DNA of 32,000 nt from Chlamydiota bacterium. GTDB lineage: Bacteria; Auribacterota; JACPWU01. The DNA lies in assembly GCA_016196885.1 (NCBI GenBank), contig JACPWU010000020.1, positions 30,001 to 62,000 of the forward strand. Reading direction: 5' to 3'. The notes beneath the pieces are model-generated. The model was not told the DNA's origin, did no database searches, and saw only the letters and a program-made list of their open reading frames with translations. Below, piece after piece: positions 5,430 to 32,000 of the stretch (positions are counted from its first letter, which is position 1; the number at the start of each line of letters is the position of its first letter). The position numbers were made by a program, and so were the translations under genes.

Positions 5430-6725
5430 TCATGGTTCTTCAATTTTTCCATCCCTCATCACAACTCTACCCGCCACCACTGTGGCCACAGCTTTTCCTT
5501 TCAACTCTCTCCCATAAAAGGGGGAATTCTTGCTCTTAGACTCAAAAAGCTCCTCCCCCACTTTCCACTCTTTCTCAAGATCCAAAATCGTCACATCACC
5601 TATAGAACCCACAGAAAGTTTTCCTCCCGGAAGATTTAGAATTTGGGCAGGTTTTACAGACATTTTTTCAATCCACTGAGAAAGGGTCAAGACACCCGCA
5701 TGAACGAGATGATGGAGCCCCAAGCCGACGGACGTCTCAAGACCCAAAATTCCAAAAGGAGCCACATCAAACTCCACCTCCTTTTCTACCTCTTGATGAG
5801 GCGCATGGTCTGTTGCAATCACATCTATCGCTCCATCTTTAAGTCCCTCCCGAATGGCCTCAACATCTTTTCGAGTTCCGAGAGGAGGATTCATTTTAAA
5901 TTCTGTCCGGTAAGGCGTTATCTCCTCATCTGAAATCACAAAATAATGAGGAGCCGTTTCGGCGGTAACGGAAATGCCGCTCTTCTTTGCCCAACGAATC
6001 AATTCCACAGAGCCGGCCGTACTGACATGCGCCAAATGAAGAGGTGCACCCGTATATTGACTGATCAAAATGTCTCTGGCCACCATGACCTCCTCTGAAA
6101 TGCTGGGTATTCCCTTGAGCCCGCAGGAAGTTGAAGCATATCCTTCATTCATCACCCCTTCTTGAGAGAGGGCCTTGTCCTCGCAATGATCTATCACCTT
6201 TAAGCCAAACATATTGGCATATTCCATCACACGACGCATCATATAGGCATCCGCAATCGGGGCTCCGTCATCACTGATCGCGACCACCCCTGCTTTTTTC
6301 AATTGCCCAATTTCCGTCATCACCTTACCCTCACGGGCCATCGTAGCCGCTCCGATGGGATAAACGCGAATGAGATTTCCTTCCCTCGCCTTTGCCAAAA
6401 CAAATCCGACCGTTCCGGGTTCGTCTATGGCAGGCTGAGTATTGGGCATGCAGCACACGGCCGTAAAGCCTCCTTTAGCCGCAGACTTCATCCCTGTTAA
6501 AATGGTTTCTTTGTGTTCAAATCCGGGCTCCCTTAAATGCACATGAATATCAATAAATCCGGGAGCCACCACCAGACCTTTTGCATCTAATGTGGGAAGA
6601 GAATCGGCTTGAATATTTTTTGCAATTTTTTGAATGACCCCCTTTTCAATCAAAAGGTCTAACACCTCATCTATTTTTTGAGAGGGATCAATCACACGGC
6701 CGTTCTTAATCAAAAGTGTGCTCAT
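5430..6725 (-). CDS. pyrC: dihydroorotase
   Basis: 431 aa with amidohydrolase metal motifs [10 protein letters not shown] and ATDHAPH. There is a 4-nt ATGA overlap with the pyrB stop. Confidence 0.93.
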
Positions 6726-8196: not shown

Positions 8197-8218
8197 TTAA
8201 TCAACCCCATTCGGGCAT

Positions 8219-8318
8219 AAAAAAAGCCCGCTCTTTGAAGAAAGATCAGGCTTCGATAAACGAATAAAAGACCTCATTTTTTCTCCCTTTCCAGCCTCAC
8301 AGGACTGGGATTAAAAGG
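8219..8318 (-). promoter_or_regulatory. PyrR-binding attenuator leader (binding loop plus terminator hairpin and U-run)
   Basis: The minus strand reads CUUUUAAUCCCAGUCCUGUGAGGCUGGAAAGGGAG (8284-8318). This resembles the known PyrR binding-loop motif (..AGUCCAGAGAGGCU..AAGG). It is followed by the hairpin AAGCC..UCUUUCUUCAAAGA..GGCUU and a U7 run ending at 8219, 22 nt upstream of the pyrR ATG. Confidence 0.65.
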
Positions 8319-8364
8319 CAACCTTATTCATCGTATCACCTTGAAATATTTTGTCAATCTTTTT

Positions 8365-8393: not shown

Positions 8394-8430
8394 CCCTTTA
8401 CGATAATATCATCATTTGATATCATCAGGT

Positions 8431-8712
8431 ATGATCGAAAGCTTTTCTTGCCCAGAAACTGAAAAAGTGTTTAAGGCTATTGGATCAAGAAAATTGCCCT
8501 GGGACATTCAAAGAACTGCAAGAAGGAAACTCCTCTACATGGATGAAGCTAACGATTTGAGGGATTTGATGGCCCCTCCAGCCAATCGACTTGAAGCTCT
8601 GAAAGGAAATCGAGCAGGGGAGTACAGTATTCGCATCAACGAGCAGTGGCACATCTGTTTCAAATGGGAAAGAGGCAAGGCAAAAGATGTTGAGATCACA
8701 GACTATCATTGA
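8431..8712 (+). CDS. higB: HigB-like (RelE/ParE superfamily) type II toxin
   Basis: MIESFSCPETEKVF...RKLLYMDEANDLRDLMAPPANRLEALKGNRAGEYSIRINEQWHICFKWERGKAKDVEITDYH has the characteristic HigB 'plasmid maintenance system killer' layout ending in ..I.DYH. I start at ATG 8431; the track start at 8416 is a TTG. Confidence 0.85.
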   Translation: MIESFSCPETEKVFKAIGSRKLPWDIQRTARRKLLYMDEANDLRDLMAPPANRLEALKGNRAGEYSIRINEQWHICFKWERGKAKDVEITDYH

Positions 8713-8732
8713 AAATATAAGGACTGAATCAC

Positions 8733-9032
8733 ATGAAAAACAAACTTTCTCCTATCCATCCTGGTGAGACATTGTTGGAAGACTTCATAAAACCTTATGG
8801 CTTAAGTCAATACCGTGTTGCAAAAGACATAGGCGTGACACCCCTGAGAATCAGTCAGATTATTCATGGAAGAAGAGCTGTTACAGCCGATACCGCCATA
8901 CGTTTAGGGCGTTATTTTGGAACGAGCGCTACCGTCTGGCTACGCCTGCAAGCTCGTTTTGACATTGAAATAGCTGAAAAAAAATTATCCCATCGCATTG
9001 ATAGGGAGGTCAAAGTACTAAAAGCAGCATAA
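8733..9032 (+). CDS. higA: HigA-like antitoxin, XRE-family HTH
   Basis: 99 aa. The N-terminus PIHPGETLLEDFIKPYGLSQYRVAKDIGVTPLRISQIIHGRRAVTADTAIRLGRYFGTSATVWLRLQ is a typical HigA HTH. The gene begins 20 nt after higB. Confidence 0.88.
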   Translation: MKNKLSPIHPGETLLEDFIKPYGLSQYRVAKDIGVTPLRISQIIHGRRAVTADTAIRLGRYFGTSATVWLRLQARFDIEIAEKKLSHRIDREVKVLKAA

Positions 9033-10822: not shown

Positions 10823-10965
10823 TAACCCCTCCACCTCCCCTTATGGTTTGCGCCCTGCCGGGCTCCAACCACTTCCTCGTCCACCCGCTGCGACGGGTAC
10901 CCGGACTCGGTCGAAAGGGGAGAGTTTCTCCCCTCTTTAGTTCAAAGAGGGGTTGGGGGAGTTAA
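10823..10965. repeat. GC-rich palindromic element with ~80-nt GC-rich cargo (G2)
   Basis: Termini are TAACCCCTCCACCTCCCC... and ...GAGGGGTTGGGGGAGTTAA, with an internal hairpin CCCCTCTTTAGTTCAAAGAGGGG. It fills the lspA-lgt spacer. Confidence 0.8.
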
Positions 10966-14707: not shown

Positions 14708-14977
14708 TTATACAAATATCAACAGAAATTGAACCAAAAGCTTCTCGGCGACGGACAAAAGAATGAAAGCAATAATAGGCGAAAAATCAATCATGGACCA
14801 ACGCAGAGGAATAAGCCTTCGAATGGGTTGTAATATTGGATCCGTCAAACGATACAGAAATTGCACAATCGGATTATATGGATCCGGACTCACCCAAGAA
14901 ATGAGCACACGAATGAGCAATATAATAGAATAAAAATGAAAGATCCATTCGATCAGACGAATGAGCAAAATAATCAT
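14708..14977 (-). CDS. yggT: YggT-family membrane protein
   Basis: Small two-TM protein with ISWVSPDPYNP..., typical of YggT. I start at ATG 14977 (MIILLIR). The track's TTG start at 15001 lies inside the repeat terminus, so the start is uncertain. Confidence 0.8.
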   Translation of the reverse strand: MIILLIRLIEWIFHFYSIILLIRVLISWVSPDPYNPIVQFLYRLTDPILQPIRRLIPLRWSMIDFSPIIAFILLSVAEKLLVQFLLIFV

Positions 14978-14988
14978 AGAAAATTTTC

Positions 14989-15263
14989 TTAACCCCTCCA
15001 ACTCCCCTTAAATAAGGGGAGAGTAAAAAACTCGCTCTTTCGAGTTCCCCTCTTATTTAATTTTAATGATCCTTCGAGATCATCATGTGCGATGAAAGTT
15101 CTCCCCATTATGTTTTTTGTAGTCGCCCGATTCATCGGGCAATCCATGCAAGGGGCACACGGCAGCCCCATAAATGGGGCGACTACAAGGGTGATTTTCA
15201 TCCCCCTTTGTGCCGACCTCAGTCGGCATGAATGTTTCATAGTAAGAGGGGCTAGGGGAGTTA
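14989..15263. repeat. GC-rich palindromic element (G3), interrupted by a nested REPIN-like element
   Basis: TTAACCCCTCCAACTCCCCTTAAATAAGGGGAG...TCCCCTCTTATTTAA | insert | AGTAAGAGGGGCTAGGGGAGTTA. The uninterrupted equivalent, TCCCCTCTTATTTAAGAGGGGCTAGGGGGGTTA, is seen at 28855-28887. Confidence 0.85.
15059..15240 (+). repeat. REPIN-like element, copy A
   Basis: The core GTAGTC-GCCCGATTCATCGGGC-[23 nt]-A-GCCCCATAAATGGGGC-GACTAC spans 15119-15186. Its flanks are conserved with copy B (about 90% identity over the 5' 60 nt). Confidence 0.85.
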
Positions 15264-15277
15264 GTTTTTTTAATTCC

Positions 15278-16096
15278 TTATCCCCTCAACTCCTCAGACC
15301 TTTTTTGGGCTCGCTCAATACCTCGAATAATGGCTTCTCTCACCGAACTTTCCTGAAATATTTTGAGAGCCGCTTCCGTCGTCCCTCCCGGACTTGTGAC
15401 TTTTTTTCGCAAGGATTCCGGAGACTCTTGGGTTTCTTTTACTAAAAAAGAAGCGCCCATCGCTGTAGCCTCCACCAACTTTCGACTCACCTCAGGAGTC
15501 AAACCCAATCGAACCCCAGCCTCCACCATGGCCTCCATCAAATAAAAGAAATAAGCCGGCCCACTGCCGCTCACTGCCGTCACGGCGTCCAAAAGATTTT
15601 CAGGTAAAGGGACGGTTTCCCCAACAGAGCCCATCATTTGAAGCGCTATTTTTTCATCCTCTGATCCGGCAAAAGTTCCGCGGCTCACCCCCGAAATCCC
15701 CTTTCCAACGAGAGCTGGCATGTTGGGCATCACACGAATGACGCGCACCCCTTTCCCCAACTTTTCTTCAAATCTCTTAATGGGAATTCCTGCAGCAATG
15801 GTAATCAATGTTTTTGAAGAAAGGTCTTCTCCCTTGATTTCGTCTAAAACCTCATTGACATTCTGAGGCTTTACGGCAAAAAGAATGATATCGGACAGAC
15901 GAACGCCGTCTCGATTTTTTTCAAAGACGCGGACCCCAAACTTTTTCTGAATAAAATCTCGGCGTTCCTGGCGAATTTCGGTGATCCCAATATTTTCCGG
16001 CAGCATCTCTCGGGAAGCTTGGACCCCTTGGATCAAGGCCTCTGCCATATTGCCCGCACCTATCAAAAGAAGTTTTTTGTTCTCTAGAACACTCAT
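15278..16096 (-). CDS. proC: pyrroline-5-carboxylate reductase
   Basis: 272 aa with Rossmann motif LLLIGAGNMAEAL and the C-terminal signature SPGGTTEAAL. There is an ATGA overlap with the yggS stop. Confidence 0.95.
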   Translation of the reverse strand: MSVLENKKLLLIGAGNMAEALIQGVQASREMLPENIGITEIRQERRDFIQKKFGVRVFEKNRDGVRLSDIILFAVKPQNVNEVLDEIKGEDLSSKTLITIAAGIPIKRFEEKLGKGVRVIRVMPNMPALVGKGISGVSRGTFAGSEDEKIALQMMGSVGETVPLPENLLDAVTAVSGSGPAYFFYLMEAMVEAGVRLGLTPEVSRKLVEATAMGASFLVKETQESPESLRKKVTSPGGTTEAALKIFQESSVREAIIRGIERAQKRSEELRG

Positions 16097-16776
16097 CGCG
16101 GTCTCTCCCTAGGCCCAAAAATTGCCTGCCCAATTCGGATCATGGTTGAGCCTTCCTCAATCGCCACAGGATAGTCGTGACTCATCCCCATCGAGAGAAT
16201 GTCTAAATTTTTATAGTGATTCAAAAGCATCTTCATTTTCTTAAAATAAGGTCTCCCCTCTTCAGCATCCTCAAAAAAAGGAGCCACGGTCATGAAACCC
16301 CTCACCCTCAAATTTGAAAAATCTTGAATCTTTTGAACGGCACTTTCCACTTCCTCTTCCAAAAAGCCAAATTTGGTTTCCTCTCTTCCGATGTTTATTT
16401 CTAAAAGAATGTCTGCGACCTTGACCTTTTGAGCCGCAACCTTTTGAAGCCTTTCAGCCAATTTGAATGAATCAACAGATTGAATCATTTCAAACAATCG
16501 AATGGCATCATCCGCCTTATTGGTTTGAAGGTGACCCATCATATGCCATTTCAAGTCACTCGGCAATTGGGGAATTTTCCCAAGGGCCTCTTGAACACGA
16601 TTTTCACCGAACCATTGAATCCCTTCATGAAAAGCCTCTAAAATCTCAGGGGCTGAAACCCCTTTTGTTGCAGCCACAAGCATGATCTCGTGCGAAGATC
16701 TCCCCACCCTCTGGCAAGATTTTTGAATTTTTTTACGAATGATCTCGAGACAATCAGGAATCAAAGACAGGGGCAT
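16093..16776 (-). CDS. yggS: YggS-family pyridoxal-phosphate homeostasis protein
   Basis: The LVAATK PLP-lysine region and HMMGHLQTNK are present. I start at ATG 16776 (MPLSLIPD...), which shares one base with the upstream TGA (TGATG coupling). Confidence 0.9.
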   Translation of the reverse strand: MPLSLIPDCLEIIRKKIQKSCQRVGRSSHEIMLVAATKGVSAPEILEAFHEGIQWFGENRVQEALGKIPQLPSDLKWHMMGHLQTNKADDAIRLFEMIQSVDSFKLAERLQKVAAQKVKVADILLEINIGREETKFGFLEEEVESAVQKIQDFSNLRVRGFMTVAPFFEDAEEGRPYFKKMKMLLNHYKNLDILSMGMSHDYPVAIEEGSTMIRIGQAIFGPRERPR

Positions 16777-17258
16777 CAATCTACCCAAAGATTTGAGGCT
16801 TGCTGAGCTAGTATTTTTCCATCTTTCAAAAGGGTCACCTTCCAAACATCTACAGGGCCCTCCTTGGCAAATTCCTCTCCTTTATGTTCCACCTCTGTTT
16901 CATAAAGGCCCGTGCGATCTACCGACACTTCTAACATTTTTTTATGAAGGGCATTGTCTCCTGCCAAACGATATTCAAACTGAAGTTGAAGCGTTTGAGG
17001 TTGCGTGAGTTGAGAACATTTCCATTCAATCCGATGAGATTCACCCACCTCCTCCGGAGGAAGATTTTGAGGGGAATAAAATTTATCAATGTAAGAAATC
17101 TCATAGCCCAAATCATTGTGGGGACGCCCTAGGTCATGATACTGACTATTTTGCCGGGTCACTTTCTCAATGCTAAAGGTATCTGAATGCGCTAAAGCTA
17201 CAGTTCCTAAAATAAGGCTCGCTTGAATAATTATTTTTTGCCACCCCATGAATTTCAT
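16776..17258 (-). CDS. hypothetical secreted protein (signal peptide)
   Basis: 160-aa ORF whose N-terminus MKFMGWQKIIIQASLILGTVALAHS looks like a Sec signal peptide. I recognise no family. It is translationally coupled to yggS. Confidence 0.6.
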   Translation of the reverse strand: MKFMGWQKIIIQASLILGTVALAHSDTFSIEKVTRQNSQYHDLGRPHNDLGYEISYIDKFYSPQNLPPEEVGESHRIEWKCSQLTQPQTLQLQFEYRLAGDNALHKKMLEVSVDRTGLYETEVEHKGEEFAKEGPVDVWKVTLLKDGKILAQQASNLWVD

Positions 17259-17288
17259 AATTCTCCTTAAATTTTAAAATAAATCTTT

Positions 17289-18704
17289 TTAAAACTCCAT
17301 CCTGTTCATCATCAACCCCGTCATCAACTTCGGATAAAAATCTGTGGACTTCTGGGGCATCCTCTCCTGGCCAAAGGCAACATCCTTCACCTGAAGAGGT
17401 TGAGTCGGATTTAAAAAGAAGGCCAGCTGGGACCCCCCTCGATGAACAGCCTCCAAAGCCTCACCTATTTCCCGACAGTAAGAAACGCACGTTTCATTAC
17501 GCACGGCCTCTGGATCAATCCCCAAAACTTTTTCCAAAATTAAATGGTGTAGAACCACAACGTCCAATCCACGCCAGCCCTGAGAATGCTTCTCCTTAAA
17601 GAAATCTTGGGGCACAGAACTTTTAGGATAATGCAAAAGAACAAATTCATCAGAACCATAGTAAAGACCCAAGGTATGCCCCTCTGGGTCTTCCCCTTTC
17701 ATTTTCTCTCGAATGAACTCACTGCGATGATCTTTAGGAAGCTTCAAACGCTTCGGATGAAAATCCTTTTTCAGCAATTCCTGAAGATTCATCATTTTCT
17801 CATCTGAAACATTTCTCACCAAACGATGCGTCGGCAAAATCACCAATCCCTCATCATATAAATTCACAAAGGCCATCATGGCATAATCAAAGGGCTGACT
17901 TCCATCAATACCCCCTCTTAGATAAGAGGGGTCTGGGGAGTTAATTCCATCAATACCCCCTCTTAGATAAGAGGGGTCTGGGGAGTTAATTCCTTTTACC
18001 CCCTGTATCCTCTTGGCCATCTCCTCACGAAAATTGAGTGCTGTCTCATAACGATGATGGCCATCGGCAATCAATAATTTCTTAGATTTCATCAGGGCCT
18101 GCAATTGAGGCAATACCTCTTTGTCATGAATGGCCCACAAGCGATGATCCACTTTATAATCTTTGTCCGTAAAATTAAACATGGCCTGAGTTGGCCGCTT
18201 AGAATTGAGAAGTTCCATCACCTCCTTCTTACGGTCCTCGTAGAGCATAAAAATCAATCCAAAATGAGTTTGAGTAGCCCTCAAATGATTGAGCCGATCC
18301 GCCTTGGGCTTGGAAAGCGTCTCTTCATGGGGATAAACCTCTCCCTCCCCATATTTCTGAAGGAGCCCCAAGGCAATAAAAGCCTGCCTCTTTTTTCTTT
18401 GCCCAAAAACCGTAAACTCCTGATCGTAGCAATAAATCGCGCTCTCTTGATTTTGAACAAAAACACCCGACTTCACCCATTCTTGAAGAAGCTTTCCTTG
18501 AGTCTCATAAGTCGCGGCCACTTTAGAGGCATGAGAAGAGGGCACCTCTTTTAAAATAAGGCGAACGGCATTGCATGGGTCCCGCGTCAGATAGGATTGA
18601 TAAAGCTTGGCATCAATTTTGTCATAAGGTTGAGTAATGACATTTTCTATCTTTATTTTTTTAGAATTGTAATACGTGCCTTTAAAAGGTTTAATCACTG
18701 CCAT
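17289..18704 (-). CDS. DUF1015-family protein carrying an in-frame repeat insertion
   Basis: 471 aa with the conserved LLIADGHHRYETAL and ILPTHRL motifs of DUF1015. Residues GINSPDPSYLRGGID x2 are encoded by a 2 x 45 bp tandem copy of the GC-rich repeat. Confidence 0.75.
   Translation of the reverse strand: MAVIKPFKGTYYNSKKIKIENVITQPYDKIDAKLYQSYLTRDPCNAVRLILKEVPSSHASKVAATYETQGKLLQEWVKSGVFVQNQESAIYCYDQEFTVFGQRKKRQAFIALGLLQKYGEGEVYPHEETLSKPKADRLNHLRATQTHFGLIFMLYEDRKKEVMELLNSKRPTQAMFNFTDKDYKVDHRLWAIHDKEVLPQLQALMKSKKLLIADGHHRYETALNFREEMAKRIQGVKGINSPDPSYLRGGIDGINSPDPSYLRGGIDGSQPFDYAMMAFVNLYDEGLVILPTHRLVRNVSDEKMMNLQELLKKDFHPKRLKLPKDHRSEFIREKMKGEDPEGHTLGLYYGSDEFVLLHYPKSSVPQDFFKEKHSQGWRGLDVVVLHHLILEKVLGIDPEAVRNETCVSYCREIGEALEAVHRGGSQLAFFLNPTQPLQVKDVAFGQERMPQKSTDFYPKLMTGLMMNRMEF
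17901..17990. repeat. perfect 2 x 45 bp tandem of a GC-rich half-element (G4), in-frame inside the DUF1015 CDS
   Basis: TCCATCAATACCCCCTCTTAGATAAGAGGGGTCTGGGGAGTTAAT occurs at 17901-17945 and identically at 17946-17990. Confidence 0.95.
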
Positions 18705-18735: not shown

Positions 18736-18880
18736 TTAACTCCCCCAACCCCTCTTTCCCGTGGAGACTATAAAAGCTTGAAATAAGAGGGGAGTAGACT
18801 CTCCCCTTATTTCAAGTTCTTACAAGATTTTATAGTCCCCGCGGGATAGTCCCTGTGGGAAAGGGGAGTTGGAGGGGTTA
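18736..18880. repeat. GC-rich palindromic element, long nested palindrome (G5)
   Basis: Termini TTAACTCCCCCAACCCCTCTTTCCC and GGGAAAGGGGAGTTGGAGGGGTTA. Inner inverted repeats GGAGACTATAAAA/TTTTATAGTCCCC and CTTGAAATAAGAGGGGA/CTCCCCTTATTTCAAG surround the centre GTAGACT. Confidence 0.9.
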
Positions 18881-23771: not shown

Positions 23772-24818
23772 TTAATCCACCATCTCCACCGAAGTATTTC
23801 CTTTCACAATTTCTCCAATCACTTTTCCCTCGAATCCCTCTTTCTTAAAAAGCTTTTGAGCCTGGCCCAAATCTTTCGAAGAAAGAATAATCACAATTCC
23901 AATCCCCATATTAAACGTATGATACATATCCTCTTCAGATACATTTCCAAATTTCTGAATCAATTTAAAAATAGGTAAAACACTCCAAGCACTCTTTCGA
24001 ATACGAGCCTTACAGCCTTTGGGAAGGACACGCGGAATATTCCCGGAAAAACCTCCGCCGGTAATATGAGAAATCGCATGGATCTTTACTTTTTCATATA
24101 CCTTTAAAATGGCATTGCTGTAACAGGTATGGGGTTTTAGCAATGCCTCCCCAACGGGGCATCCCAATTCCACAATTTTTTGATCAACTGTCCAATTCAT
24201 CTTTTCGAAAAAAACTTTTCGCGCCAGAGAATAACCATTGGTGTGAAGCCCGTTGGAAGGAAGCCCTAAAATCACATCCCCTGGTTTTACTTTTGATCCA
24301 TCTATGATTCTATCTTTTTGGACGACTCCAACAAGGGTCCCCACCAAATCATAATCCCCCTCTTGATACATCCCCGGCATCTCAGCCGTCTCTCCGCCAA
24401 TCAGCGCACATCCTGCATTTAAACATCCTTGAATGAGTCCTCGAATAAGCTCATCCCCCACTTCAGGATTCAAACGACCCGTCCCAATATAATCCAAAAA
24501 GAAAAGAGGTTTGGCTCCCTGAACCACAATATCATTGGCACAATGACTGACAATATCAATCCCCACGGTGTCATGCCTATTCATCAGGCCGGCCACTTTT
24601 AATTTTGTCCCGACCCCATCCACGCTCGAAACCAAGACAGGATTTTTATATTTTTTTCTATCGAGAGAGAAAAGCCCACCAAACCCTCCAATTTTTGAAA
24701 GCACCTCAGGCCCATAAGTCTGGTGAATGGGCTTTGCAATCCCCTTCTTAAACCGGTCCAATTTTGGAATATTGACACCTGCTTCTTGATACGTGAGTGT
24801 TTGAGTCATGATATGCAT
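23772..24818 (-). CDS. purM: phosphoribosylformylglycinamidine cyclo-ligase (AIR synthase)
   Basis: 348 aa with YQEAGVNI, DGVGTK and GGETAEMPG motifs. The start could also be ATG 24809. Confidence 0.95.
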   Translation of the reverse strand: MHIMTQTLTYQEAGVNIPKLDRFKKGIAKPIHQTYGPEVLSKIGGFGGLFSLDRKKYKNPVLVSSVDGVGTKLKVAGLMNRHDTVGIDIVSHCANDIVVQGAKPLFFLDYIGTGRLNPEVGDELIRGLIQGCLNAGCALIGGETAEMPGMYQEGDYDLVGTLVGVVQKDRIIDGSKVKPGDVILGLPSNGLHTNGYSLARKVFFEKMNWTVDQKIVELGCPVGEALLKPHTCYSNAILKVYEKVKIHAISHITGGGFSGNIPRVLPKGCKARIRKSAWSVLPIFKLIQKFGNVSEEDMYHTFNMGIGIVIILSSKDLGQAQKLFKKEGFEGKVIGEIVKGNTSVEMVD

Positions 24819-24842
24819 CCTTTAAAAGAAATTTCCAATGAT

Positions 24843-25072
24843 CAATAACAAATGTCAAATAAATCTCCAATTCTCCAATGTCCAATTGGATATTGAGTCA
24901 TGGGTCATTCATTTGCTATGAAAGTGAAGCTCATTCTGTAGTCGCCCCATTTATGGGGCTGCCCGATGAATCGGGCGACTACAAAAAAAGCATGATGGGG
25001 AGAACTTTCATCGCACACGATGATCTCGAAAGATCATTAAAATTGATATTTGAAATTGGAAATTTGTCATTG
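24843..25072. repeat. AT-rich word-array palindrome (E3) wrapping REPIN-like copy B
   Basis: The left arm is CTCCAATT CTCCAATG TCCAATTG (24865-24888). The right arm is ATTGATA TTTGAAA TTGGAAA TTTGTCA (25042-25069). The outer ends CAATAACAAAT and ATTTGTCATTG are complementary. It fills the purF-purM spacer. Confidence 0.7.
24900..25044 (-). repeat. REPIN-like element, copy B (inverted relative to copy A)
   Basis: The reverse complement aligns with 15059-15240. The core GTAGTCGCCCCATTTATGGGGCTGCCCGATGAATCGGGCGACTAC spans 24938-24982. It lacks the two 23-25 nt segments present in copy A. Confidence 0.85.
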
Positions 25073-25075
25073 TCT

Positions 25076-26467
25076 CTATAAAACAATTTTCTTTCTCTTC
25101 TTTTCCATGATTAATTTATGAATACCTTCTTCTACGGGAACGGGATATTCTTTGGTGTAGCAAGCAGTGCAAAATCCAATGTCAAGACCAGACATGGCCC
25201 TCAGCATGCCCTCTTTACTTAAATAACCCAGGCTGTCCGCCTCTAAATAAGATTTGATTTCATCCAAGCTGTGAGAAGAAGCAATCAATTCGGCTGTAGA
25301 AGGAAAATCAATCCCATAATAACAGGGGCTTACATGCGGGGGGCAGCTGATTCTCACATGCACTTCCCTTGCCCCTGCGTCCCTTAAAATACGTACGCGA
25401 GAACGACTCGTCGTCCCTCTCACAATAGAGTCGTCCACGACCACCACACGTTTGCCTTCGATCACTTCCCGAATCGGATTTAATTTAATCGTAACGCCCA
25501 AGTCTCGAATGAATTGACTGGGCTGCAAGAAAGTTCTCCCCACATAATGGTTGCGGATAAATCCCATTTCCAAAGGAATGCCTGACGCTTCTGAATATCC
25601 CATGGCCGCAGAATTTCCAGAATCCGGGACCGGAATCACAACATCGGCTTGGGCAGGATGCTCTTGAGCCAATTCCACACCCAATTTCTTGCGAATAGAA
25701 TGAACACTCTTGCCCATCATCCAACTATCAGGACGCGCAAAATAAATATTTTCAAAAATGCAAAAAGAAGTTGGGGTCTCGGTAAAAGGCTTGATCGAGC
25801 GAATGAGATTTTTGCCAATAAAAACAATTTCTCCCGGCTCTACATCCCGAATAAAATTTGCCCCGATTAAATCCAACGCACAAGTTTCAGAAGCCAAGAC
25901 ATAAGCCCCCTCTTTTTCGCCGATACACAAAGGCCTAAACCCGTTTGGATCCCGGACTCCAACAATTTCATCCTCCCACAAAATGACAAGTGTATAAGCG
26001 CCTCTCACCCTTTTAAGACTGTCAACCAATGCCTCTTCTCGAGATTGGAGAGAAGACCGTGCAATCAAGTGAAGAAAAATCTCGCTGTCTACCGTGGTCT
26101 GGAAAATAGAACCCTGTTTTTCTAATTCTTCCCGCAATTCGCGAGCATTCACCAAATTTCCATTGTGCCCAATCGCCAAATCTCCCTTTGAACAACTCAC
26201 CAAAATAGGCTGGGCATTTTCAATCATGCTGGAGCCTGTGGTCGAATAACGTACATGCCCAATGGCAATAGAGCCTGTCAAATCCTTTAAGACCTTCTCG
26301 TGAAAAACCTCTCCCACCAAGCCCATGCCCTTATGCACCTTCAGGCTCTTCCCATCGCTCGTCACAATCCCAGCAGACTCCTGACCCCGATGCTGAAGCG
26401 CATAGAGTCCCAAGTAGGTCAAATGGGACGCATTCTCATTTCCATAAATCCCGAAGACACCGCACAT
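25076..26467 (-). CDS. purF: amidophosphoribosyltransferase
   Basis: The N-terminus MCGVFGIYG carries the Ntn-amidotransferase catalytic Cys. The PRTase motif VVVVDDSIVRGTT is also present. Confidence 0.96.
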   Translation of the reverse strand: MCGVFGIYGNENASHLTYLGLYALQHRGQESAGIVTSDGKSLKVHKGMGLVGEVFHEKVLKDLTGSIAIGHVRYSTTGSSMIENAQPILVSCSKGDLAIGHNGNLVNARELREELEKQGSIFQTTVDSEIFLHLIARSSLQSREEALVDSLKRVRGAYTLVILWEDEIVGVRDPNGFRPLCIGEKEGAYVLASETCALDLIGANFIRDVEPGEIVFIGKNLIRSIKPFTETPTSFCIFENIYFARPDSWMMGKSVHSIRKKLGVELAQEHPAQADVVIPVPDSGNSAAMGYSEASGIPLEMGFIRNHYVGRTFLQPSQFIRDLGVTIKLNPIREVIEGKRVVVVDDSIVRGTTSRSRVRILRDAGAREVHVRISCPPHVSPCYYGIDFPSTAELIASSHSLDEIKSYLEADSLGYLSKEGMLRAMSGLDIGFCTACYTKEYPVPVEEGIHKLIMEKKRKKIVL

Positions 26468-26487: not shown

Positions 26488-26575
26488 ATTAATTGAAAAT
26501 TGATAATTGAAAATAAATGAAATAATTAATCATTCCTTCATTATCAATTGTCAATTATGAATTATCAATTTTAAA
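26488..26575. repeat. AT-rich heptamer-word palindrome (E4)
   Basis: The left arm is AATTGAA AATTGAT AATTGAA AATAAAT (26491-26518). The right arm is TTATCAA TTGTCAA TTATGAA TTATCAA TTTTAAA (26541-26575). AAAATTGATAATT and AATTATCAATTTT form a perfect 13-bp pairing. It fills the purL-purF spacer. Confidence 0.8.
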
Positions 26576-28814: not shown

Positions 28815-28887
28815 TTAACCCCCCTAGCCCCCCTTAAAATAAGGGGGGAACTACTCCCCTCTTATTTAAGAGGGGCTAGGGGGGTTA
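28815..28887. repeat. GC-rich palindromic element, minimal 73-bp form (G6)
   Basis: TTAACCCCCCTAGCCCCCCTTAAAATAAGGGGGGAACTACTCCCCTCTTATTTAAGAGGGGCTAGGGGGGTTA. The outer arms are perfect complements and there are two inner hairpins. It fills the purQ-purL spacer to within 1 nt of the purL ATG. Confidence 0.92.
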
Positions 28888-29830: not shown

Positions 29831-29868
29831 ATTTTTCTCCATACAGATAGCTTAGAAAAGAGAAAAGC

Positions 29869-29897
29869 ATCGTATCATTGAACTAAAAAGAATTCAA
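29869..29897 (-). promoter_or_regulatory. candidate sigma70-type promoter upstream of purS
   Basis: The minus strand reads TTGAAT, 17 nt, TACGAT. This is a pattern match only, and the -10 is weak. Confidence 0.25.
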
Positions 29898-29898
29898 C

Positions 29899-29911
29899 GG
29901 GGAAGGGTTAA
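29899..29911. repeat. solo GC-rich element terminus (G7)
   Basis: GGGGAAGGGTTAA resembles the right termini GGGGGAGTTAA and GGAGGGGTTA. No partner arm is present. It is adjacent to the IS. Confidence 0.35.
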
Positions 29912-29945
29912 TTTGCTAAAAGTGATGCTGTATTTACCTAAAACC

Positions 29946-31304
29946 TGCGTGAAAAATAGCATTTTTCACGCAAGGGGAACAAGTTTTTTGATTTTGTTGA
30001 TGGCGAACACAAAGACATTTTTATTGGGACTGTTCTTTGGAAATTTGAGAGTGGGAACATTATTTGTGTGTACCAGTTCCCCTGGCACCATAAAAAGCTG
30101 ATGCCGTAATTTGGGAAGGGTTAGAGATTGCCAATGATCTGGCAAGCAAAGTCGTTTGAACCAAGTGATCAGGTTATGTGCTAGGAGAGATAGTTCGGCA
30201 TAAAAGGCATTGGCAACAAAATTCTTTGTGGGGGCACTGCCAAACGGGAAGTCATTTTTGAGGATGCGGATGATTCTTTCTAGATTAGCTCTATCTTTGT
30301 AGAAAGTGAAAATTCCATAGGGAGTTAAAGGTAGGTTTGTTACGATCACTGAATAGGCGTATTTGTCGAGGGTGAATAAGGTGAGTTCTTGATCTGGTTG
30401 CGTCTCGATTTTTCTACGAAGTACGACAAAACGATATTTCTTTTCCCATGAATGGGGCTGATAGAAGAACTCAGCCGTTGAGAATTTTGCGTTAACTTTA
30501 TGGTACCTGAGACCTGACAGACGTCTTTTAATGGGGGCCGTCATTCTGGCCACGATGGTGAAACCAATGCCCGCTGTATCGAGTTCTTTGACAAATTCTT
30601 TCTCGTAGAACCCAGAATCGGCGCGGGTTCTGAGATGATGAGGGTAAGGCAAGAGCTTAATCGTATCACGAAGAAGAGGAATAACTCCCTCAGCTGTGTG
30701 GGCATTGCCGTAACGGAGAAATCCTCCGAGAGCGTCTTTGAGGTGGGCTTCGGTAGCGACAAGGGGATGATAGGATTTTTTGCCAATGTGTCCGGGGTTG
30801 TAACCCTTAACGACGCCTTCCTGATGACCGTAGAGGGTATTGGCGGTGGAATCGAAATCGATGCAGTAGCTGGGAAGAAATGACGGCTGAGTCATAAAAT
30901 ATTTTCGAAGGCTGTTGTGAATTTCACAAAGAGAGGGAGCAAGATCAGGCGCAGATCGAAGCAAAAATCTTCGGAGCGTCGTAGGATTTGGAAAACTTGG
31001 AATACCTGTCAGATATTGGAAAACGCCATTTGTTTTGAGAAGCGCTGAGACCTCGATCTTTTCAAGACCCAGGATCATAGGGTAAATGAGAGCCAGAATC
31101 ATTTCTGTTGTGCTGTACTTGTTGTTCTTTTGGATATAGGCGAATCGACGACTGAGAAAAGTTCGCAGTTGAAGACTTTGAAAAAATCGGTGGAGAAGAT
31201 AAATGCCGCCAAAGTGGGAAAATTTTCCCGCTGTAAAGGCCATGCGAATATTGCTGGCTCCACGACGACGCATTTCACGAACCTAACTAAAAGTTAGGTT
31301 CGTG
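29946..31304 (-). mobile_element. IS1380-like insertion sequence (ends approximate)
   Basis: A single transposase ORF is bracketed by perfect hairpins at 29946-29972 (12-bp stem, covers the stop codon) and 31276-31304 (13-bp stem, 2 nt upstream of the ATG). I could not identify convincing terminal inverted repeats or target duplications. Confidence 0.5.
29966..31273 (-). CDS. IS1380-family (IS4-superfamily DDE) transposase
   Basis: 435 aa. IDFDSTANTLYGHQEGVVKGYNPGHIGKKSYHPL, ..TRADSGFY.. and YKDRANLERIIRILKND (Y-x2-R-x3-E-x6-K) fit the DDE layout I associate with IS1380-type transposases. Confidence 0.75.
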   Translation of the reverse strand: MRRRGASNIRMAFTAGKFSHFGGIYLLHRFFQSLQLRTFLSRRFAYIQKNNKYSTTEMILALIYPMILGLEKIEVSALLKTNGVFQYLTGIPSFPNPTTLRRFLLRSAPDLAPSLCEIHNSLRKYFMTQPSFLPSYCIDFDSTANTLYGHQEGVVKGYNPGHIGKKSYHPLVATEAHLKDALGGFLRYGNAHTAEGVIPLLRDTIKLLPYPHHLRTRADSGFYEKEFVKELDTAGIGFTIVARMTAPIKRRLSGLRYHKVNAKFSTAEFFYQPHSWEKKYRFVVLRRKIETQPDQELTLFTLDKYAYSVIVTNLPLTPYGIFTFYKDRANLERIIRILKNDFPFGSAPTKNFVANAFYAELSLLAHNLITWFKRLCLPDHWQSLTLPKLRHQLFMVPGELVHTNNVPTLKFPKNSPNKNVFVFAINKIKKLVPLA

Positions 31305-31323
31305 TCAAAAGATCTTTTTTATT

Positions 31324-32000
31324 CTAAGCCTTATTTAATGGGAGCTTCAGTGATATTGTGGGTTTGGCTTGCGCAGGATTTAAGTAATATAAGCTCTTTG
31401 TCATGAGCTCTATGGTCTCTTCTTTCACTAATCTTTTGCTCAATTCCTCTATCACCTTGATTCGCTCTTCTTCGACTGATTTTAAATCTATGGCTTTTTC
31501 AATGTCTTTCATCTGGAGCATGAGATGGATGTTAGGGCAGCTGGAGGAGGAAAGAATATTAGATGTTGAAAGTTGGATGTTGGAAGATGACAAGGAGTTT
31601 TTATCTTTTTCTTTCAACTTTAAACTTTTAACTTTTAACTGTTTTATATATTCCCCCAATTCTATCTCCCCACTCGTATACCTTTCATTCTCTTTTAGAA
31701 TCTCTTTCACCTCTTTTGAGTAGATTCCCTCTTTTAATCCTTCAATTCGTTTCTCTATCTCTTGAAGAATAGGCTCCGCCTTCTCTTTTAACTCCTGCCC
31801 TCTGTCAAATTGAACCAAATGCGTGAAGTATTCCTTCATGTTTTCTATCCCTTGAAGAGGTAGGGGCTTGTCTTTGACGATCGATAAATATTCCGCGCCG
31901 CTGATTTTTCCCTCTTTCATCAGATACTCTGCGAGCATTTTGCGGATCGCAGGATCTGGAAAGGCTGTGAATTGGCTGGTGTCTACTACTCCCCCTGCGG
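31324..32000 (-). CDS. hypothetical coiled-coil protein, 5'-partial (frame open to window edge)
   Basis: The ORF frame stays open upstream of the annotated Met to position 32000 (..AGGVVDTSQFTAFPDPAIRKMLAEY..). It is K/E-rich and helical. It contains a low-complexity segment encoded by heptamer word arrays. I recognise no family. Confidence 0.5.
   Translation of the reverse strand, partial: AGGVVDTSQFTAFPDPAIRKMLAEYLMKEGKISGAEYLSIVKDKPLPLQGIENMKEYFTHLVQFDRGQELKEKAEPILQEIEKRIEGLKEGIYSKEVKEILKENERYTSGEIELGEYIKQLKVKSLKLKEKDKNSLSSSNIQLSTSNILSSSSCPNIHLMLQMKDIEKAIDLKSVEEERIKVIEELSKRLVKEETIELMTKSLYYLNPAQAKPTISLKLPLNKA
31565..31638. repeat. convergent heptamer word arrays inside a CDS (E5)
   Basis: GTTGAAA GTTGGAT GTTGGAA (31565-31585) faces CTTTCAA CTTTAAA CTTTTAA CTTTTAA (31611-31638). 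It uses the same GTTGGAA word as element E2. Confidence 0.75.

Follow-up and report, generated by a model that had tools for sequence, protein, structure and literature searches.

A REP-dimer composite in the loop of a GC-rich palindromic hairpin between proC and yggT

We argue that the spacer between proC and yggT is a mosaic of non-autonomous palindromic repeats laid down by successive insertions, and that the composite repeat within it was most likely moved by a RAYT-type enzyme. We put the probability of this reading as a whole at about 0.5. The anatomy of one insertion nested within another is very probably right. A hairpin of a GC-rich repeat family is split in its loop, and a composite built around a REP dimer occupies the break. 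A second copy of the composite lies in the purF-purM spacer with different flanks.

The window, by which we mean the whole 32,000-nt stretch that was analysed, has a G+C content of about 44% and a steadily negative GC skew. Its minus strand holds nearly all genes. To one side of yggT and proC, Pfam identifies carB, carA, pyrC, pyrB, pyrR, rluD, lgt, lspA, a dksA-like gene and ileS. To the other side it identifies ylmE, DUF1015, DUF4416, purD, purH, purL, purQ and purS. The features that frame the argument are these:

8217-8322: PyrR site (leader), from Rfam
14708-14977, minus strand: yggT, from Pfam
15278-16096, minus strand: proC, from Pfam
23772-24818: purM, from Pfam
25076-26467: purF, from Pfam
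about 29850-31329: insertion sequence with a DDE_Tnp_1_4 transposase (gene 29966-31273), the sole IS in the window

The only gene pair on the plus strand is a HigB-like toxin with an HTH antitoxin (8416-9032), between the PyrR leader and rluD. The insertion sequence is bounded by imperfect inverted ends of 15 nt and contains two subterminal hairpins, and the local GC skew turns to +0.24 there.

Beyond the source organism, the nearest relatives of ProC share only 60-64% identity with it. Two syntenic relatives keep the order purF-purM-purH-purD-...-ylmE-proC-yggT/ileS-dksA-lspA-lgt-rluD. The proC-yggT gap is 11 nt in L063, and the two genes overlap in L064 and L065. The preliminary description had proposed a comparison with related genomes in which this junction is uninterrupted, and such a junction exists, at 0-11 nt, in two relatives. 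Since proC and yggT are adjacent or overlapping there, the 300-nt spacer has been acquired. In L065 the purF-purM spacer is 36 nt and the lspA-lgt spacer 12 nt. The spacers of the window are 300 nt (proC-yggT), 257 nt (purF-purM) and about 129 nt (lspA-lgt), and the entire excess is repeat DNA. The case shows how a tightly coupled gene pair such as proC and yggT can gain a 300-nt structured spacer.

The acquired proC-yggT spacer is filled by one GC-rich palindromic doublet, the host, with the composite inside it:

14990-15263: host doublet, consisting of tail TAACCCCTCCAAC, hairpin 1, central spacer and split hairpin 2
about 15003-15020: hairpin 1 of the host
15021-15045: central spacer of the host, with an extra small hairpin AAAAAACTCGCTCTTTCGAGTT
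15046-15060: left arm and loop of hairpin 2, TCCCCTCTTATTTAA
15058-15060, with a second copy at 15243-15245: TAA, a possible target duplication (n = 2 composite copies)
15061-15242, plus strand: composite insert copy A, 182 nt, in the loop of hairpin 2
15067-15082: left subterminal hairpin of copy A, TGATCCTTCGAGATCA
15091-15099: palindrome arm of copy A, GATGAAAGT
15119-15186: GTAG-tagged REP head-to-head dimer of copy A, 68 nt
15119-15140: left REP of copy A, GTAGTCGCCCGATTCATCGGGC
15165-15186, other strand: right REP of copy A, GTAGTCGCCCCATTTATGGGGC
15194-15201: palindrome arm of copy A, ATTTTCAT
15211-15228: extra hairpin in the right arm of copy A, TGCCGACCTCAGTCGGCA
15243-15263: right arm and tail of hairpin 2, TAAGAGGGGCTAGGGGAGTTA

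An intact paralogue of hairpin 2 at 28855-28887 reads TCCCCTCTTATTTAAGAGGGGCTAGGGGGGTTA. Against it the flanks of copy A are identical at 15/15 positions on the left and 17/18 on the right. The claim that a REPIN-like element splits this hairpin at 15046-15263 thus holds as it was made, with TAA on both sides. The right arm with its tail, AAGAGGGGNNNGGGGAGTTA, has 140 matches in more than 120 metagenome contigs (L067-L186), and in 121 of the 140 the left arm CCCCTCTT stands only 5-7 nt upstream. In the host of copy A the left arm is 189 nt upstream instead, so hairpin 2 is truly split in its loop. It had been left open whether the likeness of the flanks to the element at 28815-28887 was coincidental; with six family copies in the window besides the 140 metagenome matches, it is not.

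A full GC-rich element is an inverted pair of units. Each unit has a C-rich tail, TAACCCCYCYARC, and then a hairpin of the form CCCCYYTTA-loop-TAARRGGGG with the arms CCCCTCTTA/TAAGAGGGG. The other five GC-rich copies in the window are:

218-249: single unit, just downstream of the carB stop
10823-10964: doublet with a 71-nt GC-rich insert (10844-10914) in the loop of hairpin 1
17900-17989: two tandem 45-nt units, in frame in the DUF1015 gene (17289-18704, minus strand)
18737-18880: doublet in which both hairpins are interrupted by mirror-image inserts, a long 144-nt palindrome
28816-28887: intact 72-nt doublet, a near-perfect palindrome that fills the purQ-purL spacer and serves as a paralogous 'empty site'

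The arms of the intact doublet are 32 nt long and 84% complementary. The 71-nt insert at 10844-10914 is unique and differs from the composite. Several of these copies touch coding sequence. The 28816-28887 element contributes with its ends the purQ stop (TAA) and, 5 nt before the purL ATG, a G-run. In the 10823-10964 doublet, hairpin 2 and the tail (10937-10964) overlap the 3' end of lspA and provide the last LspA residues, INSPNPSLN, with the stop codon. The insertion in DUF1015 adds 30 aa (INSPDPSYLRGGIDG twice) that are missing in both relatives, and is RPE-like.

The composite itself is best defined by comparing its two copies. The second is found here:

24829-24839 / 25055-25065: outer stem of an AT-rich imperfect palindrome round copy B
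24893-24896 and 25043-25046: TTGA flanking copy B
24897-25042, minus strand: composite insert copy B, 146 nt, in the purF-purM spacer
24938-24982: REP dimer of copy B

The preliminary description had placed this copy at 24900-25044; the copy exists, with its boundaries refined to 24897-25042. That it is inverted relative to the first is borne out by repeat comparison within the window. The copies are identical at 128/141 aligned bases (91%), and their flanks are unrelated, those of copy B being AT-rich. Copy A has 41 nt that copy B lacks, spread over three indels. The left arms, 60 nt long, are 93% complementary between the copies, and both REP halves are 100% identical. Each copy starts with exactly TTTTAATGATC. 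A conserved hairpin, TGATCYTTCGAGATCA, takes the left subterminal position in both, followed by the arms of an imperfect palindrome, ATGAAAGT and A(C/T)TTTCAT. At the tip are two inverted REP units, GTAGTCGCCC-GATTCATC-GGGC and GCCC-CATAAATG-GGGCGACTAC. The right arm and right ends are poorly conserved between the copies, and a right subterminal hairpin is present in copy A only.

The label REPIN-like is apt, since the core is a head-to-head dimer of GTAG-tagged REPs. It does not cover the whole 182 nt: the dimer is only the 68 nt at 15119-15186, and the rest consists of genome-specific arms and small hairpins. The unit that moved is a composite of 146-182 nt and not a bare REPIN. Between its REPs copy A has 24 nt and copy B has 1 nt; the 23 extra nt (15141-15164) are bounded by GGCA repeats. 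The additions at 15021-15045, 15141-15164 and 15211-15228 are each unique among the sequence data compared. A 23-mer common to A and B is absent from the metagenome contigs, the viral contigs and the 61 genome loci, and the peptide encoded by the repeat, used as a protein query for spurious ORFs over further copies, returned no candidates.

The REP core is a different matter. The pattern GTAGTCGCCC-N8-GGGC is found at 4 places in the window without mismatch, where chance would give 0.77 even if 3 mismatches were allowed. A scan of representative genomes with TGTAGTCGCCCNATTYATNGGGC gives at least 61 loci (L001-L061). The phyla among the matches listed are Stahlbacteria, WOR-3, Zixibacteria, Nitrospinota, Poribacteria, Dehalococcoidia/Chloroflexi, Ignavibacteria, Bacteroidota, Acidobacteriota, Actinomycetota, Elusimicrobiota, Planctomycetota, Patescibacteria and Proteobacteria. 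A near-identical 22-nt REP (GTAGTCGCCC-RATTYATY-GGGC) thus occurs in about 14 phyla among the matches listed, in MAGs and in complete genomes such as Poribacteria OZ242335.1, and it keeps its GTAGT head and TTYA loop throughout. The GTAG head is followed by a 6-bp stem, and the loop read from GTAG is TTTA or TTCA in 143 of 211 GTAG-hairpin matches, the others being scattered. There are at least 38 GTAG...CTAC head-to-head dimers, the window's two included, mostly 45-47 nt long with spacers mostly of -1 to +5 nt. Where partner REPs were picked solely by a nearby CTAC, without a hairpin criterion, GTAG is invariant in all 23 of them, and their stems covary: compensatory changes occur in 6/6 pairs, 89% of cells pair, and 0/500 shuffles reach this. 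These traits define GTAG-tagged REPs in head-to-head dimers, and in a wide sense of the term the dimer is a REPIN. The 32-kb window has 2 such dimers; other genomes show several per 8 kb. The REP pattern has no match in viral contigs, and a literature search with the REP sequence string matched unrelated primers alone.

Several other repeat arrangements were met along the way. A related REP subtype, GTAGTGCGAGGCTTYAGCCTCG, is present in metagenome loci. In L049, at 5834-6028, seven or more REP units are arrayed head to tail upstream of a butyrate-kinase-like gene; the period is 34 nt and the spacer always 11 nt. A family with a C-rich hairpin and a G-rich tail, of which CCCTCTCCCTTAAAAAGGGAGAGGG-atGGGTGAGGGTT is one example, is widespread in phyla and metagenomes, and is also found in L004, L010, L028, L043, L056 and L058. 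In Stahlbacteria CSMAG_2146 a REP dimer and a C-rich hairpin unit lie 56 nt apart (L004 7566-7668), and this composite is repeated at least 5 times in the one genome (L004, L011, L018, L020, L048). A third short repeat, CCTGTCCTGAGCGWAGTCGAAGG, directly follows CCCTCTTAAGG in L118 and L103, and in L118 it is inside a GC-rich hairpin loop. L086 and L089 have REP-like hairpins within an ATTGC...GCAAT palindrome. The purF-purL spacer of the window, at 26493-26575, is taken up by AT-rich 'word-array' palindromes (TTGAAAATTGATAATTGAAAAT with its complement) that resemble the flanks of copy B (24829-25065). These arrays may represent either operator-like sites or a third family of repeats.

It had been claimed that both copies sit in the centre of a pre-existing palindrome, and suggested from this that hairpin or cruciform DNA is targeted. 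The first claim is half right. Without the composite and one TTGA, the copy B site folds into an AT-rich imperfect hairpin with an 11-bp perfect outer stem (MFE -14.8 kcal/mol, z = -2.7), so copy B is inside a palindrome. However, it entered about 16 nt 3' of the apical loop, and the two copies are not both central. The evidence on targeting also divides. Copy A is in a loop and copy B in a palindrome. Loops of GC-rich hairpins are interrupted in 4/11 cases in the window (the 71-nt insert, composite copy A, and the mirror-image inserts in both hairpins at 18737-18880) against 3/140 metagenome units (Fisher p = 5e-4), and such inserts are rare elsewhere. For 38 REP dimers of the window's type in other genomes, complementarity of the flanks does not exceed that of controls (Mann-Whitney p = 0.13 and 0.45). 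The two families lie close together more often than under random placement: 27% of C-rich hairpins are within 100 nt of a REP (5.7% at random), as are 6.4% of GC-rich units (1.4% at random). This is about 4.7-fold in both sets, part of it due to one composite repeated in a single Stahlbacteria genome, and is about what shared intergenic confinement would give.

Target duplications, which the preliminary description had suggested looking for as AA or TAA, give a similar picture. YAA stands before both composite copies, and each copy has 3-4 nt repeated beyond its other end, as TAA/TAA at copy A and TTGA/TTGA at copy B. With n = 2 copies and a rough p of about 0.03, this could be chance. An element derived from IS200/IS605 would have subterminal hairpins and no inverted termini, and would insert just 3' of a constant short target and leave no duplication. 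The composite has a conserved left subterminal hairpin but a right one in copy A only, and both copies follow YAA, where a duplication is also possible (n = 2).

We infer the following order of events. A GC-rich doublet of the 72-nt type would have landed between proC and yggT when they were still adjacent or overlapping. A composite of about 146-182 nt would then have entered the AT-rich loop (TTATTTAA) of hairpin 2, possibly duplicating TAA. The mover would most likely be an HUH tyrosine transposase of the REP-associated kind (RAYT/TnpA-REP type), with its gene elsewhere in the genome. Folded single-stranded REPs are processed by TnpA-REP (Corneloup et al. 2021, PMC8266576), and an extruded hairpin loop would expose a YAA target to an enzyme that acts on folded single strands. 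We rate this RAYT and single-strand loop mechanism at somewhat less than an even chance. The whole composite lacks inverted termini and its right ends are poorly conserved, which makes a REP-specific enzyme uncertain as its mover. The window holds no RAYT gene, and a motif regex together with phmmer using E. coli RayT detected none across about 1.2 Mb of loci. A stronger claim would be that the loops of extruded hairpins in one repeat family are the preferred single-stranded YAA target of a RAYT-driven REP family whose 22-nt recognition hairpin is nearly unchanged in about 14 phyla. We consider this unlikely. If it were true, it would mean a REP/RAYT system that spans phyla, settles in palindromic repeats of other families and gives rise to nested mosaics.

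The main rival to all of this is tolerance of insertions in a very compact genome. One can suppose that the composite inserts about randomly in AT-rich sequence and, in a genome whose operon spacers are 0-40 nt, survives only where it lands in neutral repeat DNA, so that nesting reflects what is tolerated and not what is targeted. The operon spacers of the relatives are very tight. Three unrelated sequences occupy GC-rich hairpin loops in the window, and the unremarkable flanks of the 38 dimers and the intergenic confinement described above fit this account as well. It explains less well why the inserts hit loops of a few nt instead of falling anywhere in the 72-nt elements (4 are in loops and 1 is the small hairpin in the central spacer), or why copy B too is within a palindrome. 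GC-rich units also occur in coding regions, which means the neutral space is not confined strictly to repeats. We regard this account as doubtful. A second scenario takes a MITE-like element whose inverted ends are the GC-rich termini and whose internal cargo varies, its 142-274-nt forms having arisen by recombination, templated repair or capture. Inverted termini are indeed present in the doublets, with scores of 27 and 19 where the null reaches at most 16 and 13. Internally the doublets range from 72 to 274 nt, and the mirror-image inserts at 18737-18880 are expected from symmetrisation of a palindrome. However, copy A keeps both arms of hairpin 2 at full length and breaks it exactly in the loop, the composite has a second site without GC-rich ends, and the sole IS in the window has unrelated ends. 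This scenario is quite improbable. Its unrelated ends are also why we rejected the DDE_Tnp_1_4 IS as parent of the small repeats. A DDE-derived MITE should have terminal inverted repeats of 15-30 bp, and the composite has none, its end-against-end alignments scoring 6 and 8, inside the shuffled range.

Selection for a structured RNA or regulatory signal, such as an mRNA stabiliser or attenuator, would account for the folding of both copies' spacers, much stronger than in shuffles (z = -6.2 and -5.0), and for the UUCG-type hairpin in the composite. REPs act on mRNA in other bacteria, as Di Nocera et al. (2013, PMC3733652) set out. On the other side, Rfam searches of the whole window and three spacers give no family for either repeat or for the C-rich hairpin family; the PyrR site alone matches in the window at gathering score, and local searches with E values as high as 10 add nothing but noise. 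In neither spacer do promoter or terminator signals score above shuffles. The two copies are opposite in orientation with respect to transcription, the composite is missing in the relatives, and its right arm is poorly conserved. We find a selected RNA signal very improbable. It would be more surprising still if the MAG contig had been mis-joined across repeats. Logan contigs from the same samples, SRR12113417 and SRR12113387, do end inside repeats, at about window positions 15017, 15213, 17929 and 10935, but this is expected of multi-copy sequence. One contig of this independent assembly (L062) equals window 15213-17929 with 100% identity, so a different assembler reproduces the right junction (composite end, right arm of the hairpin and proC). 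The conserved order proC-yggT-ileS across the spacer also speaks against a mis-join.

The reading we prefer, a mosaic built by successive insertions, has close parallels. How REPs and REPINs choose their insertion sites is still poorly known. The paralogous empty site, the defined start of the element and the possible 3-4-nt duplication together yield a concrete target model, which is YAA in a hairpin loop. E. coli BIMEs, for which PMC2817692 gives background, are mosaics of inverted REP/PU units and other short conserved motifs in operon spacers. The proC-yggT spacer is likewise a mosaic in an operon, but the sequences differ and the extra motifs here are independent repeat families. The loop of E. 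coli PUs is where IS1397 inserts. More generally, REP hairpins are known targets of insertion sequences (reviewed by Tobes & Pareja 2006, cited in PMC3733652). They resemble our case in that a mobile element enters a palindromic repeat, sometimes exactly at the loop. They are autonomous DDE or IS110-type elements, whereas the insert here is a small non-coding composite. Rickettsia palindromic elements and intragenic REPs are matched by the GC-rich units that lengthen the DUF1015 protein in frame by 30 aa and form the LspA C-terminus. Their sequence family is unrelated, and the likeness concerns the GC-rich host family and not the REP composite.

The REP core falls among the GTAG REPs and REPINs as presented by Di Nocera et al. 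(2013, PMC3733652), Bertels & Rainey (2011, PMC3116915) and Nunvar et al. (2010, PMC2817692). It shares the 5' GTAG, the short hairpin with compensatory stem variants, and the intergenic position between co-directional genes. Di Nocera et al. describe GTAG-tagged REPs as head-to-head dimers with 1-2-nt spacers, along with structured spacers and intragenic REPs. O. terrae GTAG-17, from the same paper, is alike in its inverted pairs with GTAG outside and spacers of 1-2 nt. The window's REP, of stem and loop type GYYYRA-TTYA-TYRRRC, is placed by its REP hallmarks rather than by assignment to one of the 24 published families.

REP dimers within palindromes were already reported in 2013, in section 7 of that paper (PMC3733652). 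Dimers of A. variabilis GTAG-15 lie inside long palindromes, T. roseum GTAG-23 lies within small palindromes that are also free in hundreds of copies, and dimers of H. neapolitanus CGTC-1 are all inside 41-bp palindromes. As in those cases, the REP dimer here is central in a longer palindrome. The GC-rich doublet is like the T. roseum target in being also free in many copies, and the composite arms ATGAAAGT/ACTTTCAT are like the A. variabilis arms in travelling with the dimer. Unlike those cases, there are three levels of nesting here (REP dimer, composite arms, and hairpin 2 of an inverted doublet), and the host family is widespread in metagenomes. By itself the proC-yggT case extends the pattern described in 2013; what is new is the further nesting level and the new pair of families. 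The most interesting residue is the REP itself. REPs are normally lineage-specific, and a study of REPIN populations describes them as lineage-specific and vertically inherited (bioRxiv 10.1101/2022.05.22.493013). In contrast, the 22-mer of the window is nearly unchanged in about 14 phyla among the matches listed, and near-identity over so many phyla is unusual.
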